Shown here: one piece after another, positions 1,883 to 17,852 of the stretch | How positions within the stretch are numbered: position 1 is the stretch's first letter | Layout of the letters: every line of letters begins with the position of its first letter | Origin: a virus | Taxonomy: Duplodnaviria; Heunggongvirae; Uroviricota; Caudoviricetes | DNA length: 64,000 bases | Reading direction: 5' to 3' (one strand) | Virus record (IMG/VR): IMGVR_UViG_3300042298_002704 | Position numbers and translations under genes: made by a program | Notes under the pieces: generated by a model | What the model saw: only the letters and a program-made list of their open reading frames with translations | What the model was told of the DNA's origin: nothing | Database searches by the model: none

Positions 1883-2157
1883 TAAACATAACCTTCGTTT
1901 TCTTTCATAAATTCTTTTCGGGTTATTGCAATTATGGGTAAATTATCCAAATATGACAAATCAGGATCGGCTTCCAATTTAGTCTTCCAACATTGTTCTA
2001 CTTCATTGAATTCAAAGTCAACGCCCCACTCTCCAGCAGGTCGCCAATAATAATATCCCGAATCCGAAGCAAAATAATTGTGCTGCCTTCGTTCCAACCT
2101 CATTGCGGTTCCGGTCGGGGAACCTATACGAACGTATTTGGGCGGTTTATTTTTCAT
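1882..2157 (-). CDS. Hypothetical protein (91 aa)
   Basis: ORF in operon-like packing. Confidence 0.6.
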   Translation of the reverse strand: MKNKPPKYVRIGSPTGTAMRLERRQHNYFASDSGYYYWRPAGEWGVDFEFNEVEQCWKTKLEADPDLSYLDNLPIIAITRKEFMKENEGYV

Positions 2158-2160
2158 CTG

Positions 2161-2322
2161 CTATTTAAAATGACTTTTTATCCAGTTTAAAATGTTATTG
2201 TAATTTAAAATAGTCAGCATCAAAATAAACCACACTACACTCCAAATTTCATATTGAAATGAACCTTCAAATGCAAACAATACTCCTAAAAAATAAAATA
2301 GTATAGCAATAATGTTTTTCAT
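2161..2322 (-). CDS. Small membrane protein (53 aa), not in ORF track
   Basis: MKNIIAILFIFLGVLFAFEGSFQYEIWSVVWFILMLTILN...; two hydrophobic segments; ATGA overlap with upstream gene. Confidence 0.55.
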   Translation of the reverse strand: MKNIIAILFYFLGVLFAFEGSFQYEIWSVVWFILMLTILNYNNILNWIKSHFK

Positions 2323-3341
2323 AGTGACTTCGATTTTACCTGTTTAAACAATGTTTCAAGATTATGTTTCGATTTTTCTTCTAATTCAACCCACCAGTTT
2401 CCTTTTTTTTCAGCATTACAAATTCCAGTTGGATTATCTTCATTTAAGATAAACTTTCGTTTTTGTGGGTGTCTACGGTTATGAACCCGTAAAATGTTTT
2501 TGAAATTGAACTGAACAAAGTCATCTCCCATAATCCGTTTGGCGATTCTTAAAATTGATTCATCTTCGCCGTGATGGATTAATGAATGGGGCAAAGTTAC
2601 TCCCGATTTTAAAAGTTCACTTGTAAAAACCAAACAACTTCCATCGGCCTTGGGTTCAGTCAATGCTTGGACTTGAATTTTATCGGGACTGATATTATTT
2701 ATTTCATTCATTTGTTCTAAGGACATATAAGATTTTTCAGAGGCAGGATTGTTAAAAATCCAATTTTCATCATCTTGATATGGAATTGATTCAAATAAAG
2801 GATGCGTTATCACGTCCCAACTTTTGTCCCAATTCTTTCTTCCGGCAAAGTTAGCAACATATTTGGGATATTGGCCGGAAACTTGTTCATGTAAAGTTTC
2901 CAAAGCAAATAACGTTTGTTTGGGCCATAGAGAATCCACCTCGTTCCAACAAATAAAGTCATGTGTATTGGTATATTTCCAACATATATCTCTGCGAGAG
3001 TGTGCAATATTATAAAAAGGAACATCATCAAAAATATATGAAATCTTCACATCCAATTCAGATGGTAGTTTACCCCATATCTTTCCAAATTGTTCTTTAA
3101 ATAAAATAAAACCATAGTATTCGTTTATAAATACTCTGCCATTTCCATGCTGTTCATAAAATTTATACCAATCTATTTTTTCAAATTTTTGCTGAAAATT
3201 AAAACATAAATCTATTGTAATATTTTGTTTATTAGTTATTGGTTCAGTCATCTGAATCAGAGATTGAATATGTTCATTGAACATTCCAATTTCATAAAAT
3301 TGAATTAACGACGAAAATACATATTTATTATTTAATTGCAT
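2319..3341 (-). CDS. Glycosyltransferase-like protein (GT-A fold)
   Basis: ICWNEVDSLW (DxD-like), HHGEDESI (GED motif), late RVHNRRHP; lies in sugar gene cluster. Confidence 0.55.
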   Translation of the reverse strand: MQLNNKYVFSSLIQFYEIGMFNEHIQSLIQMTEPITNKQNITIDLCFNFQQKFEKIDWYKFYEQHGNGRVFINEYYGFILFKEQFGKIWGKLPSELDVKISYIFDDVPFYNIAHSRRDICWKYTNTHDFICWNEVDSLWPKQTLFALETLHEQVSGQYPKYVANFAGRKNWDKSWDVITHPLFESIPYQDDENWIFNNPASEKSYMSLEQMNEINNISPDKIQVQALTEPKADGSCLVFTSELLKSGVTLPHSLIHHGEDESILRIAKRIMGDDFVQFNFKNILRVHNRRHPQKRKFILNEDNPTGICNAEKKGNWWVELEEKSKHNLETLFKQVKSKSL

Positions 3342-4125
3342 ATTTTTTTATTATTCTATATGTATGACTTAAATCATAATTTAACAACTGGGATATTTCT
3401 TTTGGTGTTTTTCCGCTATTGTATAATTCTAAACATTGAATTTTTATATTTTGAGATTTTTCATGAGAATTGTTATGATTAATATCAATTCGATCCCATT
3501 TTCGTTCGAGTAATGGGAGTTTCAGTGCAGTTAAATTAGTCTTAAGAGTTTTTAATTCTGAATTAACACCCAATCGCAAAAAACTCATATCTCCCCATAT
3601 ATGTATGGTACTTCTATTTGAAATATATTTTTTAAAAAATTCAAGAATATGTACCCAATTTTTATGTATTGCTATTGATAAAAATACTCTTTTATCGGAC
3701 TTAGGTGTCTTGACAATTGATCCGTCCCCGTCTATATAACCTGCAATAAGTGATAATATTTGGTTCTTATTAAAATTGCTCTCATAGTCATTTATATCGG
3801 GCGGATTATACGTTTTATTCGGTTTAATGTGAAATTTATTTACTATTTGTTTAACTACAATCTTGTCGCAAAAACGAATGCGACAACTGGTATTATTACT
3901 TGTCTTGGTTTTAACTTCTCTATGATCGATTTCATTTTTAAAATTTACAAATTTTTTAAATTTAAACAAATGATCATAATCTTTATTATTTATTTCTAAT
4001 GACATTTGTTGGGAATTTTGCGAAAACCAACCATCCGCTAACAGAAATCCGACCCAATAAAATGATTCGTTATCGTTTTCCAATAGTTTAGTCAAATCAT
4101 AATTTGTTTCTTTTTCTTGTTTCAT
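3328..4125 (-). CDS. Free-standing LAGLIDADG homing endonuclease (two motifs, C-terminal HTH)
   Basis: YWVGFLLADGWF and LIAGYIDGDGSI; C-terminal SGKTPKEISQLLNY. Confidence 0.9.
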   Translation of the reverse strand: MKQEKETNYDLTKLLENDNESFYWVGFLLADGWFSQNSQQMSLEINNKDYDHLFKFKKFVNFKNEIDHREVKTKTSNNTSCRIRFCDKIVVKQIVNKFHIKPNKTYNPPDINDYESNFNKNQILSLIAGYIDGDGSIVKTPKSDKRVFLSIAIHKNWVHILEFFKKYISNRSTIHIWGDMSFLRLGVNSELKTLKTNLTALKLPLLERKWDRIDINHNNSHEKSQNIKIQCLELYNSGKTPKEISQLLNYDLSHTYRIIKKYAIK

Positions 4126-4276
4126 TTTTTTGAATTTCCTTTATAGTTTTTATAAGAAGATTGCTAACAAATTGATTAACTTTTAGAGAATTCTGTTTAC
4201 AATATTCTTTAACAATCGAATGACATTCAACTGACACTCTAAAACTTTTCAATTCATCGATTTCTTCTTGTTTCAT
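4097..4276 (-). CDS. Small RHH-like DNA-binding protein (59 aa), not in ORF track; paralog of 16799..16966
   Basis: MKQEEIDELKSFRVSVECHSIVKEYCKQNSLKVNQFVSNLLIKTIKEIQKNETRKRNKL; strand-helix-helix pattern; overlaps the LAGLIDADG start by 29 nt. Confidence 0.75.
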   Translation of the reverse strand: MKQEEIDELKSFRVSVECHSIVKEYCKQNSLKVNQFVSNLLIKTIKEIQKNETRKRNKL

Positions 4277-4279
4277 ATA

Positions 4280-4301
4280 CTATAAGTATCCAAAATTTTA
4301 C
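4280..4301 (-). promoter_or_regulatory. 22-nt motif gtaaaattttGGATACTTATAG just upstream of the small RHH-like gene; putative phage promoter/operator
   Basis: 21/22 identical to 16969..16990; core GATA(C/T)TTATA also directly precedes the ATG at 8873. Confidence 0.6.
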
Positions 4302-4309
4302 AAAAAAAG

Positions 4310-4429
4310 TTACAAATTATTTTCAATTCCTTCCAACATTTGTTGGCAAGAACGTAAATGCTTATCCAACATTTCAATTTCGTAAAACTGAACTTGGGTT
4401 CCGATGAGGTAAGTGTTTTTTAATTTCAT
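4310..4429 (-). pseudogene. Stranded 39-codon N-terminus of the 2319..3341 glycosyltransferase family
   Basis: MKLKNTYLIGTQVQFYEIEMLDKHLRSCQQMLEGIENNL* aligns without gaps to MQLNNKYVFSSLIQFYEIGMFNEHIQSLIQMTEPITNKQ (17/39 identical). Confidence 0.8.
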
Positions 4430-4431
4430 TT

Positions 4432-4692
4432 TTAAATCATTTTACAGCCAGAATAGGCTTCATAATTGTAAAGATTGGGGGCATAATGAAGATATTCTTC
4501 ATGAACTGCATAATTAATCACTTCTCCGTTTGACAAACGTTCTGATTTCCATTCCCATTGGCCGTATTCATTACGTTGCGGCACTGTCAAAACTTTGGTT
4601 TTTATACAGCAACCATATTCATATTCGTAATGAATATCGCCAATTTTTATGCCTTGAACCTCGACATCACCCTTTGTAAAAATTCTATTCAT
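4432..4692 (-). CDS. Hypothetical protein (86 aa)
   Basis: ORF in operon-like packing. Confidence 0.6.
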   Translation of the reverse strand: MNRIFTKGDVEVQGIKIGDIHYEYEYGCCIKTKVLTVPQRNEYGQWEWKSERLSNGEVINYAVHEEYLHYAPNLYNYEAYSGCKMI

Positions 4693-4996
4693 TTTTCAGT
4701 ATTTTTATCGTTTGAATTATTTCACCAGTAAATATCTTTTTTCTAACTAAGAAAACTTGTCCGGGCCGAACCTCAAAGTGAAATTCAGTATCATGGTAAA
4801 TCCATTGCCATGAATAAATGTCATCACTACTGGGGTTTATTTGCTTAACTTTAACCCGTTTAATTCCATAAGGCGGTATATTGATATAATTGTCGTTTAA
4901 CAATATTTCACCTGCTTCCGAATTAACTTTAAAGGTTTGGGCATTTGAGTTTAACCAAAGACAAATAAATACAAAACTAAACAGTTTCCTCATCAT
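4685..4996 (-). CDS. Hypothetical exported protein
   Basis: Signal-peptide-like N-terminus RKLFSFVFICLWLNSNAQ. Confidence 0.55.
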   Translation of the reverse strand: MMRKLFSFVFICLWLNSNAQTFKVNSEAGEILLNDNYINIPPYGIKRVKVKQINPSSDDIYSWQWIYHDTEFHFEVRPGQVFLVRKKIFTGEIIQTIKILKNE

Positions 4997-5276
4997 TAAA
5001 ATGTTTTAATTGATAAACCATCATCATTGCATTACAAGCAAGAGCAATTAAATGACCGTTTTCCTGACCATCATCATCAAAGGTTCCTTCTTGAATTTCC
5101 ATAAAATGCCGTATCAAGGCTTGATTCAATTCCTCAACATCAATCTTTTTTTTCCAGTTGAACCTTGGATATTTGTCTCCCTTATTTTGGGACATTCGTT
5201 CGGCCATTGATTTAACAAATGACCAATCCAACTCGTAGAAAAGTTTATCTTTGTTCTCTTTTATTCCAGAATTCAT
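4977..5276 (-). CDS. DUF5664 / dATP-dGTP diphosphohydrolase-like protein
   Basis: KYPRFNWKK...ALIRHFMEIQEG...HLIALACNAMMM matches the family pattern KY.x.NW.K...A..RH...H(L)..A..N. Confidence 0.7.
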   Translation of the reverse strand: MNSGIKENKDKLFYELDWSFVKSMAERMSQNKGDKYPRFNWKKKIDVEELNQALIRHFMEIQEGTFDDDGQENGHLIALACNAMMMVYQLKHFNDEETV

Positions 5277-5596: not shown

Positions 5597-6004
5597 TTAA
5601 AAATTATTTAATATGTCCCAAAATTCAACAGGGAGATGAATGTTTTTATTTGATATTGCAATATGAAATAATGGTGCGATTTCTTCTGACGAATAACCAC
5701 TTAAACCACAACCAATTTTGGTTACTAAGAATATTTTATCAGGATTTTGTTTTGCATATTCAACAAAGATTTTAACATAAGGTTCGATTTCATTTATTGA
5801 AAGAACCTTCAAATTTCTATCCTTAGTCGGAATTGCATAACATTCGCCTGTTGGGCCAAATCCAACGCCGTATTCTGCTCCAAATTGATTTTTAGCATTT
5901 AAGGCTGCACCTAATCCGTGCTTTCCTGCTAAGTTCGAACCAAATACGAAAATCTCGTTTGGTTTGAGTTCAGTTATATTTGGATGAGTTATTCTATTAA
6001 TCAT
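5597..6004 (-). CDS. A1S_2505-family phage protein (macrodomain-like)
   Basis: EIFVFGSNLAGKHGLGAA...YAIPTKD...FLVTKIGCGLSGY. Confidence 0.75.
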   Translation of the reverse strand: MINRITHPNITELKPNEIFVFGSNLAGKHGLGAALNAKNQFGAEYGVGFGPTGECYAIPTKDRNLKVLSINEIEPYVKIFVEYAKQNPDKIFLVTKIGCGLSGYSSEEIAPLFHIAISNKNIHLPVEFWDILNNF

Positions 6005-6631
6005 TTATCTGTTGAGTTTACAAATCAATCCTTCTGAACCTTTGGTTAATACCCGCTCAGGAAACCCGCCGAAGGAATATTTGATTGGATGGCCAATTTC
6101 TTGAATTTTGACCAATCTACCGTTATAAATCAATTGTTCAATTGCGACAAATACCCGTTCGTTTAACCCATAATCGTCAAAAATAAAATAAACATCTCCA
6201 TTACCCAAATTCATTGAACAGGCACGAGCAACGTCATCTAAGACGTTTTGGGTATCGTGTCCAGCATCTACGACAAATACATTCAAAGGTTTAGTATTTG
6301 GATTATCATCAAATGTATAACTTTTATATAAAACCATAGCAATGTACTCAATATTGGTTCTATCTGAATTCAAAACTTGGGCTTCGTGAAAATGTCCCGG
6401 AAAGTTTATCGTGTAAACCTTTGAAAACAAATAACTCAAAACTCTCGTTGTTTGACCTTTATGAGTTCCAAATTCAAGTGCATTCCATGTATGAGAACCT
6501 TCCAAGTTTTTGAAAAACTCCCATACATCGGTTTTAAACTTGAAAGAGGTAGTTGAAAAGTTTTGAAACTTATCCTCTCCTACTTCTTCTAAAATTTCTT
6601 CTATTGACTTAAAATAGACCGTTTCTTTCAT
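6005..6631 (-). CDS. Class I SAM-dependent methyltransferase (Methyltransf_24-like)
   Basis: ALEFGTHKGQTT (motif I), FVVDAGHD, FIFDDY. Confidence 0.75.
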   Translation of the reverse strand: MKETVYFKSIEEILEEVGEDKFQNFSTTSFKFKTDVWEFFKNLEGSHTWNALEFGTHKGQTTRVLSYLFSKVYTINFPGHFHEAQVLNSDRTNIEYIAMVLYKSYTFDDNPNTKPLNVFVVDAGHDTQNVLDDVARACSMNLGNGDVYFIFDDYGLNERVFVAIEQLIYNGRLVKIQEIGHPIKYSFGGFPERVLTKGSEGLICKLNR

Positions 6632-6804
6632 GTTAGAATAACCAAATTAAAATGTAATAGAATTCCAACCATTGCGCAAAATGTTGACAATGTACTTGTA
6701 ATGGTACAAATAAATGCTCCGAATAAAGTTTCTTCATTAGATTTAAAGATTTTATACGAATTTACAAGTCCGATAAATGGAATTAACGATATGAAAATGT
6801 TCAT
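6628..6804 (-). CDS. Small membrane protein (58 aa), not in ORF track
   Basis: MNIFISLIPFIGLVNSY...FCAMVGILLHFNLVILT; ATGA overlaps at both ends. Confidence 0.55.
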   Translation of the reverse strand: MNIFISLIPFIGLVNSYKIFKSNEETLFGAFICTITSTLSTFCAMVGILLHFNLVILT

Positions 6805-7769
6805 AATCCTAACTTTTGTTTGACAAGTGAATAATTGTAACTAAAAGGGTATTTAGAATTTACTGGTAGACCTAATGCTTCGCCTAAACGCAAAATTGTC
6901 GGTTTCTTAACTGCATAAAGTTCTTTACTTGTTTTAAAAAGAACCTTTGCAGCAGTTTCCCAATCAACTGTCGATGGAGTGGGAGGAACAGGAACCGAAC
7001 CATTATCAAACTTAACTTCTTCAATGCACCAAAAATCATCAGCCTCGTTTGAATTTAAAGCAAATGAATAAGGCATCCAGAACAAACCTTCCTCCCCCCA
7101 ACTTGTACCCCAACTATTTTGAATTAAAAAGCATTTTTTTGAGTCAGAAAAACCAATAATTGTAACCGCGTGTCCTCCCAATAGTCGATCTCCACGTTTT
7201 GGTAGAGGCATTATTCCAGTAGTCGACTCCCAACTTCCGTAAAAACTTTGATAAACGTTGAAACCAAAACTTACAGCAGCGCCACTCAAAAGCGTTTGTT
7301 TTATTTTAGGTTCATTCTGATCAACACTTGCATATTTGACGGCGACATTTTTTAAACCATCTTCATATACATTGGGAGTTGGTTCTTTGGTCAAGGCAGA
7401 AAGCGTATCCTGATATGGCCATAAACTTTCATTGGCCAAGCCCCACTTATTCAATGCTTTGAATCCGTCCCTAATATAGGCACCCGAATCTTCCCCTTCC
7501 CAACCTTGAAGTTTTCTTGCATTATAATATTCAAATAGACGCGACGGTTCGAATTTAAAATCGTTTGTCACTTGCGCAACCTCGTAACGAAAACAAGCGC
7601 AAGCACTATTGGAAACACACGAGCCAATATTTCCTTGGTCGTATATGGGAATCTTTCTATCCAACTCAAATTCACTTGGAAGTGAAACGGGTGCAGATAA
7701 ATGTCTTACTGATTTTAAATCACGCTCGTCTTTTGGCTGACGCTGCCAATTAAGAATTCTGGTTTGCAA
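6801..7769 (-). CDS. Papain-like cysteine peptidase (C1A family)
   Basis: DQGNIGSCVSNS (oxyanion Gln and catalytic Cys), GGHAVTIIGF (His), IQNSWGTSWGEEG (Asn); TTG start. Confidence 0.92.
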   Translation of the reverse strand: MQTRILNWQRQPKDERDLKSVRHLSAPVSLPSEFELDRKIPIYDQGNIGSCVSNSACACFRYEVAQVTNDFKFEPSRLFEYYNARKLQGWEGEDSGAYIRDGFKALNKWGLANESLWPYQDTLSALTKEPTPNVYEDGLKNVAVKYASVDQNEPKIKQTLLSGAAVSFGFNVYQSFYGSWESTTGIMPLPKRGDRLLGGHAVTIIGFSDSKKCFLIQNSWGTSWGEEGLFWMPYSFALNSNEADDFWCIEEVKFDNGSVPVPPTPSTVDWETAAKVLFKTSKELYAVKKPTILRLGEALGLPVNSKYPFSYNYSLVKQKLGL

Positions 7770-15924: not shown

Positions 15925-16121
15925 TCTTTTATATATTTTTTTGCAGTATCAAAACTCAAAATATAATGCTGCTTTAACTTTTTAAATTCTGAAACGGGCC
16001 AATTCAAATCATTACATCTTTGTAATTTGATTCGTTTCTTAATGTCATCAATATAGACAACAAATAATTTCTCGTTTTGAACCGAAGTTACAATTGTTCC
16101 TACTTTCATATTATTTATCAA
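15912..16121 (-). CDS. Hypothetical protein (69 aa)
   Basis: ORF overlapping both neighbours. Confidence 0.5.
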   Translation of the reverse strand: MINNMKVGTIVTSVQNEKLFVVYIDDIKKRIKLQRCNDLNWPVSEFKKLKQHYILSFDTAKKYIKEWQE

Positions 16122-16827
16122 TTAATTCTAATCTTCCGAGTAATATCCAGTTTCTAACTGACCATTGAGATATTTGAAAATAATCCCGAACTTCTTTTCT
16201 GGTTTGAAAAATTTGATTCGTTTCAGTATGGAAAAATGCCTTTTTATTCCATTCTTTACGAGTTTTTATAATCGTTTTTCTCGTTTCTTCCGAATGCTGT
16301 TTTCCATAAAACGCATGATTCTCTCCCACAATCAACCCGGAAAACGTTTTACTCATATTTTGTTTATATTCAATCGTGTAAGTTTTCCCAATATTAAATT
16401 CAGAAATCTTACGCTTTCCTTCGGATGGATATGGTTTTAAAAATGTCCAATGTTTTTCCCCAGTCATCAATCCAGTTAACGTTTGACTTATTTGCTGTTT
16501 AATTTCCGATGACTGAATATTTCCGTTTTCACCACCTGTTCTACAATTATAACATTCGTCCAATTCGATTAATTCCAAAGTAACAACTTCTTTTTCATGG
16601 TCACTCGCCGCTTTTCTTGTTGGGTAATCAGTAATAATTTCTTTGGAAAAGTTTTCCTTACCATATTTTTTAATTGCATCTTTCAATAAAGTCCCGGAAC
16701 CCATATAACCATCATCTAAATTATCAGTAGAATGGATTCCATAATAATATTTACCGTTAATCAAATTGGTAATTTTGTAAAAGTAATTGTGCAATCTTTC
16801 ATTCTGTTCTTGTTTTGGTTGGTTCAT
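16111..16827 (-). CDS. Free-standing GIY-YIG (Seg-like) homing endonuclease with NUMOD3-like repeats
   Basis: YFYKITNLINGKYYYGIHST...YMGSG...HEKE...YN; GKQHSEETRK. Confidence 0.9.
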   Translation of the reverse strand: MNQPKQEQNERLHNYFYKITNLINGKYYYGIHSTDNLDDGYMGSGTLLKDAIKKYGKENFSKEIITDYPTRKAASDHEKEVVTLELIELDECYNCRTGGENGNIQSSEIKQQISQTLTGLMTGEKHWTFLKPYPSEGKRKISEFNIGKTYTIEYKQNMSKTFSGLIVGENHAFYGKQHSEETRKTIIKTRKEWNKKAFFHTETNQIFQTRKEVRDYFQISQWSVRNWILLGRLELIDK

Positions 16828-16966
16828 TCAGATTCCTCATGGTATTAATTAAAGACTTTTCAACAAAGAAACTAATCTTCAAACCGTTTTCTTTACAATA
16901 ACGAACTACAACGTCATGTATAATAGAATCGATTTGTAATGTTTTAAATTTCTTGTCTTGTTTCAT
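16799..16966 (-). CDS. Small RHH-like DNA-binding protein (55 aa), not in ORF track; paralog of 4097..4276
   Basis: MKQDKKFKTLQIDSIIHDVVVRYCKENGLKISFFVEKSLINTMRNLNEPTKTRTE; overlaps the GIY-YIG start by 29 nt. Confidence 0.75.
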   Translation of the reverse strand: MKQDKKFKTLQIDSIIHDVVVRYCKENGLKISFFVEKSLINTMRNLNEPTKTRTE

Positions 16967-16968
16967 AC

Positions 16969-16990
16969 CTATAAGTATCCTAAATTTTAC
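16969..16990 (-). promoter_or_regulatory. Second copy of the 22-nt cassette motif (gtaaaatttaGGATACTTATAG)
   Basis: 21/22 identical to 4280..4301; 2 nt separate it from the ATG. Confidence 0.6.
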
Positions 16991-17021: not shown

Positions 17022-17852
17022 TTAAAGTTTTATTAATGCGCCGACACCGCCCCAGTTTTCATTTCCATTAACAAATTCAAAAACTTCATATAGTTGACTA
17101 TCAATCATACAAATGTTTGGGTTATCTGACATTCTAACCTTAGTCAAATCCCTCCAAAATTCGCCGACATAGACATTTCTTTCATGATGTCTGTCGCTGA
17201 TGACCGTATCGTGAAAGCAAATCAGGCCGCCTTTATTGACAAATGGACTGTAATCCAAGAAGTCTTGTTTTACGCCTTCATAACTGTGATCTCCGTCAAT
17301 GAAGAGTAAATCAATTCTATCTTTGTCGTCCTTTGACCTATTCAGAATTTTAAACCCAATTAATTTTAAAAATTCAATTTGAGTTTTTTCTGAATGACTA
17401 TCACCTCTAATAAAATGACAATTTTCAAACCGTTCATTAAACCACAAATCTCTCTTATCCATTTCCTCTTCCGAAATTCCACCATGCAGACCACCATCCG
17501 ACATATCGATTGAAATACAAGTATCTGACCAGCCCCACTGATACCAATGTTCTTTATCCCTTCCAAATACTTCGTTCAACTTGTTCCAAATATAGAACGT
17601 TCCACCATATTTGGTTCCTATTTCAAGGACGTTAATAGGACGACCATCTTTCAAACCGGTATTTTGGATTAAAAAGTTGGTCAAATCAGTGATTTCTGAC
17701 CTAACTTGTGGCATATAGAGTTTATACGCATCATCAATTATTTTTTGAAATTCATCTATCATATCTGTGTATTTTTGTATTTTTTCAGTTGTATGCGTCG
17801 AAACTTGGTTCAACGCTTCTTTAAATAGGCTGTTTTTCATCAAATAATTCAT
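17022..17852 (-). CDS. Class I SAM-dependent methyltransferase (Methyltransf_24-like)
   Basis: VLEIGTKYGGT, FIRGDS, IDLLFIDGDHSYEGVKQDF, ICFHD. Confidence 0.85.
   Translation of the reverse strand: MNYLMKNSLFKEALNQVSTHTTEKIQKYTDMIDEFQKIIDDAYKLYMPQVRSEITDLTNFLIQNTGLKDGRPINVLEIGTKYGGTFYIWNKLNEVFGRDKEHWYQWGWSDTCISIDMSDGGLHGGISEEEMDKRDLWFNERFENCHFIRGDSHSEKTQIEFLKLIGFKILNRSKDDKDRIDLLFIDGDHSYEGVKQDFLDYSPFVNKGGLICFHDTVISDRHHERNVYVGEFWRDLTKVRMSDNPNICMIDSQLYEVFEFVNGNENWGGVGALIKL

Follow-up and report, generated by a model that had tools for sequence, protein, structure and literature searches.

This analysis concerns a homing endonuclease cassette, and the glycosyltransferase gene that follows it, in a 64,000-nt stretch of IMG/VR record IMGVR_UViG_3300042298_002704 (Caudoviricetes), referred to throughout as the window, which is AT-rich with a GC content of about 0.32. 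Every open reading frame (ORF) discussed here lies on the minus strand, and the locus is described from upstream to downstream; homologous proteins found in searches are numbered with the prefix P, and DNA loci with the prefix L (L001–L026). The locus opens with what appears to be the stranded 5' end of a resident gene, comprising codons 1–37 and two further bases (4317..4429), which matches the start of the glycosyltransferase gene and is still readable as a 39-codon ORF (4429..4310) terminating in junction-derived codons. A 15-nt junction stretch, TTTGTAACTTTTTTT (4302..4316), supplies the stop codon of this ORF; it is not common to a second cassette in the window, which carries a GIY-YIG nuclease. 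After the stop come a spacer of 8 nt and the 22-nt cassette motif, GTAAAATTTTGGATACTTATAG (4280..4301), the 5' edge of the sequence common to both nuclease cassettes. This is followed by a small gene of 59 aa encoding a ribbon-helix-helix (RHH)-like protein (4097..4276; paralog at 16966..16799) and by a gene for a free-standing LAGLIDADG homing endonuclease of 265 aa with a C-terminal helix-turn-helix (HTH), identified through Pfam and PHROGs (3328..4125). The 59-aa ORF overlaps the start of the nuclease ORF by 29 nt, and the nuclease stop in turn overlaps by 14 nt the start of the full glycosyltransferase gene, which was called as an ORF of 340 aa (3341..2319).

An initial annotation had taken the 39-codon ORF for a diverged, ungapped copy of the start of the downstream gene, and the searches bear this out. 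In a tblastn comparison with the six-frame translated window, the 39-aa product gives an ungapped alignment with residues 1–37 of the 340-aa protein at 46% identity (E 3e-8), with 17 of 39 residues identical by manual count and 69 of 120 bases identical in the DNA. The same annotation placed the stop of the ORF just before the cassette motif, a position that holds, although the spacing it gave was 9 nt rather than 8. Its further proposal, that the cassette entered at about codon 38 and stranded the resident 5' end, agrees with the affinities of the two flanks: P0001 (369 aa), the best homolog and the closest uninvaded relative, has an N-terminus that shares 92% identity with the stranded ORF but only 49% with the start of the window gene itself, and the last 200 codons of the downstream gene are 97% identical to P0001. 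The stranded ORF is also the sister of P0001 in a phylogenetic tree (support 91). Beyond the point at which it departs from the family, the sequence of uninvaded alleles continues as GAAAATAAAGAAAATGT; they carry GGAATTGAAAATAAAGAAAATGT at the point of divergence, which the window retains as far as GAAAATAA (position 4317), and beyond this come the junction stretch and the cassette motif. Neither resident codons 38–165 nor any further gene fragment was found anywhere in the window, and there is therefore no cluster of fragments of the kind associated with yeast WHO elements.

The arrangement is not peculiar to a single assembly. Exact copies of the 39-aa, 59-aa, 265-aa and 340-aa proteins each occur on 14–16 contigs, which excludes an assembly artefact; at the level of sequence, the arrangement is also established as one that is inherited. 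With the stranded ORF as query, one further protein was recovered, P0241, which has 39 aa, is 92% identical and shares the same ...ENNL end. It is encoded on a 2245-bp Logan contig, and this contig, judged by agreement in source and length, appears to carry a 60-aa variant of the small cassette gene as well. The stranded-ORF arrangement is therefore present in a second, diverged lineage, which could reflect vertical descent or repeated homing.

The downstream gene is itself a mosaic. In a sliding comparison with P0001, residues ~141–340 are 95–100% identical (97% overall), whereas residues 1–140 are only 15–50% identical and stand closer (45–63%) to another set of homologs, P0002–P0011; the best identity of the front tract to any homolog is 60%. 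Separate trees for the parts of the gene, a test proposed in the initial annotation, are discordant: residues 141–340 are the sister of P0001 with a support of 99 and a path of 0.03, while residues 1–135 fall inside the P0002–P0011 clade on a long branch, with P0001 outside. In approximately unbiased (AU) tests, a sister relationship of the front to P0001 is rejected (p 0.006), and so is one to the stranded ORF (p 0.0008). The final difference from P0001 is at P140, and from F145 onward the gene has residues specific to P0001 and the window, which places the downstream crossover at codons 140–145, or about 2924..2907. This interval separates an apparently foreign 5' tract, codons 1–140 (2922..3341), from a 3' part of resident type, codons 141–340 and the stop (2319..2921). 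By these comparisons one former P0001-like gene evidently supplied both the stranded ORF and the back of the gene, and the cassette and about 140 codons lying between them are evidently of different descent. The trees and AU tests uphold the earlier idea that a foreign 5' end restores the gene, while its supposed extent of 39 codons does not stand; the tract measures about 140, and since it ends at codons 140–145, about 130 resident codons have been lost. Residue 169 of P0001, aligned to window codon 140 (2922–2924) and so exactly at the crossover, is a serine, as against a proline in 94% of the family; it could be the last marker distinguishing donor from recipient, or it could reflect a change conferring resistance at a second candidate target site.

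Several collections were searched. The INPHARED phage set gave no DNA match and no protein match, and IMG/VR scans that used the window's own glycosyltransferase gene, nuclease and 22-nt motif gave no close match; only an alignment-based IMG/VR scan turned up related loci, 25 in number and distant. At each of the 25, synteny is conserved, the gene is intact and present once, and nothing directly upstream encodes a nuclease; this establishes a presence/absence polymorphism for the nuclease at this site. Used as a query, P0001 found no match in a genome scan and, in a metagenome scan, a single 1.3-kb C-terminal fragment (L026). As context only, the gene upstream of the stranded ORF (4432..4692) encodes 86 aa and matches phrog_11618, to which no function is assigned; its stop falls 2 nt before the ATG of the stranded ORF, and in L001 a homolog of it lies upstream of the uninvaded glycosyltransferase gene.

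The nuclease has both LAGLIDADG motifs intact, LLADGW at 4044..4027 and YIDGDGS at 3738..3718. It matches Pfam LAGLIDADG_3 (8e-7, 29.6 bits against a cut-off of 22.5) and HTH_23, together with the endonuclease family phrog_4645 (3e-23), and has 217 homologs, of which the nearest is 46% identical. The 22-nt motif occurs in the window only at 4280–4301 and 16969–16990, where chance would predict no occurrence, and it may be an operator or expression signal. A scan for sigma-70-type promoters was uninformative (11 sites against 17 expected), and by eye the motif fits the Bacteroidota -33/-7 promoter pattern poorly. Its second copy leads a cassette with a GIY-YIG/NUMOD3 nuclease (16827..16111), preceded by a paralogous 55-aa ORF with the same 29-nt overlap. 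The small cassette proteins form a family with members of 47–74 aa, and it is relatives of the 59-aa protein, not the window protein itself, that match RHH families in Pfam: Omega_Repress (2e-6), 56B_RHH and RepB-RCR_reg. The model of the 59-aa protein has an extended N-terminal segment followed by two helices, and its top Foldseek folds are Arc, omega and CopG, at weak E values of 0.1–1. The case for an RHH fold is weak but consistent, and the protein probably regulates the cassette. The second cassette as a whole (16111–16990) is flanked by a CmcI-type methyltransferase gene and a gene of 69 aa, with no stranded gene fragment beside it. In related phages a 305-aa LAGLIDADG homolog (37% identity) is encoded at a different site (L003:865-1611 and L004:97-1014), flanked by the counterparts of window genes 6631..6005 and 6004..5597; the protein bears a cysteine-rich extension at its N-terminus and is accompanied by neither a separate small gene nor a stranded fragment.

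The label of glycosyltransferase given to the target gene in the initial annotation is borne out at the level of fold. Sequence searches of Pfam, PHROGs and PDB gave no match for the 340-aa protein, which belongs to a family with at least 216 full-length homologs of 320–370 aa. An AlphaFold model built with 49 sequences reached a predicted local distance difference test (pLDDT) score of 94.9, and Foldseek matched this model to GT-A glycosyltransferases with a probability of 1.00, E values of 1e-7 to 1e-5 and template modelling (TM) scores of about 0.42–0.45; 239 PDB structures matched at E <= 0.001, and the top matches listed were all GT-A enzymes. Residues E134 and D136 are invariant and supply an acidic motif of DxD type. 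The model thus supports, at fold level, a GT-A glycosyltransferase as the product of the target gene. The neighbourhood includes CmcI-type methyltransferases and a nucleoside-diphosphate (NDP)-sugar epimerase/dehydratase. One homolog of the glycosyltransferase, P0096 (522 aa), is fused to a Methyltransf_24 domain, which ties the family to sugar O-methylation, like genes 17022–17852 and probably 6005–6631.

We interpret the locus, in a T4-like phage of Bacteroidota, as a homing element of the end-replacing kind, a reading to which we assign a probability of about 0.78. The mobile unit would comprise the 22-nt motif, the small RHH-like gene and the LAGLIDADG-HTH endonuclease, travelling together with the following 5' part of the GT-A gene. 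The endonuclease would make a double-strand break in the 5' third of a P0001-like gene; the likeliest position is codon 37/38, in the conserved GIEN-x-ENVTF block. After the break, the downstream end would be resected and would invade the donor at the next usable homology, codons 140–145. Repair synthesis would then copy the cassette and the first ~140 codons of the donor. When the element arose, the upstream end would have been joined to the 5' edge of the cassette by illegitimate (one-sided) repair; in later homing, it might instead be joined through homology with the donor's stranded fragment, as in the model for yeast WHO elements. Such an event would produce a full-length chimeric gene, leave resident codons 1–37 upstream, and create a new allele changed at the presumed target. 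In T4, where only one flank provides homology, homing gives illegitimate junctions, formed at microhomologies following resection (Parker et al. 1999, as summarised in PMC2988022), and junctions of this sort fit the proposed origin of the upstream junction.

Both junctions can be placed from the alignments, but a cut anywhere between them would yield the same product after resection. We lean towards codon 37/38 as the position of the cut, because the fragment ends there, the surrounding block is highly conserved and the new allele is unusual there. Across 17 uninvaded alleles, codons 35–45 make up a DNA block that ranks among the three best conserved in the front half of the gene. Within codons 32–45 the new allele has unusual residues (T36, Q39, I43 and L45) at four of six conserved columns, compared with three of 32 in the rest of the front (Fisher p 0.006, for a window of codons chosen post hoc), and its unusual motif, TEPITNKQNITIDL, is found in no other family member. 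By eye, 6 of 22 bases differ between the new and uninvaded alleles at the presumed target. This residue cluster at codons 36–45 suggests, but only suggests, that the target site has been removed from the new allele, which may thereby be immune. The interpretation also predicts a target for an uncharacterised LAGLIDADG enzyme, around GGAATTGAAAATAAAGAAAATGT at codons 34–41 of the uninvaded allele.

Several features of the data weigh against this interpretation. No donor-type allele was present among the homologs found, the front tract reaching at most 60% identity and the nearest nuclease homolog 46%, and the front sits on a long branch of a kind able to mislead tree placement. The post hoc choice of codons 32–45 reduces the force of the residue cluster. 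Locus junctions were mapped from protein comparisons only, and we infer from nuclease biology which of the two phages was the resident. Furthermore, the backbone is mosaic: L026 (1-1322), the sole P0001-like DNA fragment, is 89% identical to the window across the last 220 nt of the gene, but downstream of the gene it carries about 250 extra nt and then a next gene only 52% identical to that of the window, and its divergence just past the gene marks a mosaic boundary at the gene's 3' end.

This last point bears on the possibility that no nuclease was involved, and that one illegitimate and one homologous crossover between co-infecting mosaic phages happened to bracket a passive cassette. T4-like phages recombine heavily, and the backbone around the gene offers an example, but such an exchange requires a chance illegitimate junction in the gene adjoining the nuclease, within a highly conserved block and precisely where the cassette has its 5' edge. 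Nuclease genes at the boundaries of exchange are, moreover, a described phage pattern (PMC10448857), and we regard passive exchange as unlikely. Were P0001 itself the recombinant, and the front of the window gene ancestral to its lineage, the unusual, longer variable region of P0001 and its odd S169 at the crossover would find a ready place; the truncated P0001-type start upstream of the cassette in the window's genome would be left unexplained, which makes this very unlikely.

Two further explanations were weighed. The collinear, ungapped copies and the long branch of the front are what might be expected if the first 37 codons had been duplicated in tandem when the cassette was inserted, and had then diverged rapidly, with no foreign DNA involved. 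Residues 38–140 are not duplicated, however, yet they too have only 15–50% identity to P0001 as against 97% for residues 141–340, and a sister pairing of the front with the stranded ORF fails the AU test (p 0.0008), so that in-place duplication is extremely unlikely. The stranded ORF might otherwise be the first exon of a split gene, spliced or protein-joined to the body, with the nuclease borne by an intron or intein; short, unannotated first exons are known beside phage nuclease genes, as in the ICP1 terminase (PMC10448857). Against this, an Rfam search of 2000–5200 returned no intron family even at E up to 1, and only a chance-level match; the 340-aa gene starts from an ATG of its own, and its N-terminus is complete and lines up collinearly with those of about 120 homologs; and the nuclease is a separate ORF with its own start and stop, not an in-frame intein. 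A full-length chimeric gene with its own start does not need splicing, as the initial annotation had proposed, and the chance that this is a split gene is close to negligible.

The end-replacing homing element has its nearest counterparts outside phages. The initial annotation likened the locus to integrases that rebuild their target genes, a resemblance that is looser than that to the end-replacing homing elements of fungal mitochondria and yeast. Fungal mitochondrial mobile endonuclease ORFs (mORFs) carry foreign C-termini for Glomus atp6, atp9, cox2 and nad3 (PMC3630166), and a citation therein describes an atp6 mORF in Allomyces macrogynus (Paquin et al. 1994, as cited in PMC3630166). As here, a LAGLIDADG or GIY-YIG gene lies beside the host gene, a foreign and diverged gene end restores the reading frame, no splicing is involved, and the native remnant is much closer to an uninvaded relative than is the inserted copy; in the window the remnant is 92% identical to P0001 and 46% identical to the gene's own new start. 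The mORFs replace a 3' end in organelles, whereas the replaced part here is the 5' end including the start codon, in a lytic phage, with the nuclease upstream of the rebuilt gene; and this cassette, unlike mORFs, also includes a motif of its own and a small RHH-like gene. With every integration, the yeast WHO elements (Torulaspora, Lachancea) put a new 3' end on FBA1 and leave fragments that have been proposed as homology arms, with discordant trees for the ends of the gene (Coughlan et al. 2020, PMC7282813). They share with the present locus the replacement of one end of a conserved gene, the discordant trees and the fragments beside the nuclease gene; the WHO allele is made resistant, and a WHO fragment can act as a second homology arm. 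WHO proteins are, however, intein-derived zinc-finger fusions of nuclear genomes, directed at the FBA1 3' end, with fragment clusters and demonstrated cleavage, whereas here there is one fragment.

Within phages, the literature covers co-conversion, split genes and nucleases at exchange boundaries (PMC2988022, PMC10448857), but a rebuilt 5' end with a stranded start is not described in these two reviews and surveys. The local duplications that SegB drives in T6 demonstrate that nucleases of this kind are able to produce repeats (PMC13096335). The free-standing T4-type nucleases SegF, SegG and MobE (PMC2988022) are similar in lying between or beside conserved genes; they are thought to cut the neighbour gene of relatives that lack the nuclease, and to spread with the flanks. 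One-sided repair in T4 likewise gives one homologous and one non-homologous junction. The T4-type cases in PMC2988022 leave clean replacements or split genes, and differ in this from a retained 5' fragment with a rebuilt start. In Aeh1 nrdA/mobE and T4 gene 39/60 with mobA (PMC2988022), a nuclease gene also lies inside a phage coding region, but there both halves of the gene are needed and reassemble. In the window, by contrast, a complete gene lies downstream and the piece upstream is redundant. The 5'-end replacement, the phage setting and the RHH-led cassette set this locus apart from known end-replacing elements.

If the homing interpretation is correct, the window offers, from a T4-like phage, a natural case in which homing rebuilds the start of the target gene without an intron or intein, with both junctions mapped and a near-identical uninvaded relative to serve as a reference. 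It would tie the illegitimate, one-sided repair known from experiments with T4 to an outcome in nature, and would extend the logic of mitochondrial mORFs and yeast WHO elements to 5' ends and to viruses. There is also a caution for annotation, since short ORFs beside nuclease genes may be stranded gene ends and the neighbouring gene a chimera of discordant parts. More speculatively, the stranded fragment may be the working upstream homology arm of a phage gene drive, a mirror image of WHO in which the fragment, the motif, the RHH gene, the nuclease and a resistant 5' third of the gene form one unit that homes repeatedly into P0001-type alleles, each event swapping the nucleotide-sugar-binding half of a hypervariable glycosyltransferase, with the same front end of motif and RHH gene serving two unrelated nuclease families, LAGLIDADG and GIY-YIG. 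We consider this doubtful; a selfish element would then be driving the functional diversification of a phage gene for sugar modification.

Two other genes in this part of the window were identified in passing. The gene at 4977–5276 (minus strand) encodes 99 aa with a match to the N-terminal domain of dATP/dGTP diphosphohydrolase (PF18909, 8e-12), presumably a MazZ-like function of the sort known from phages with modified purines. At 6801–7769 (minus strand), a 322-aa papain-family cysteine protease (Peptidase_C1, 2e-16) is encoded, with about 70% identity in related phages.

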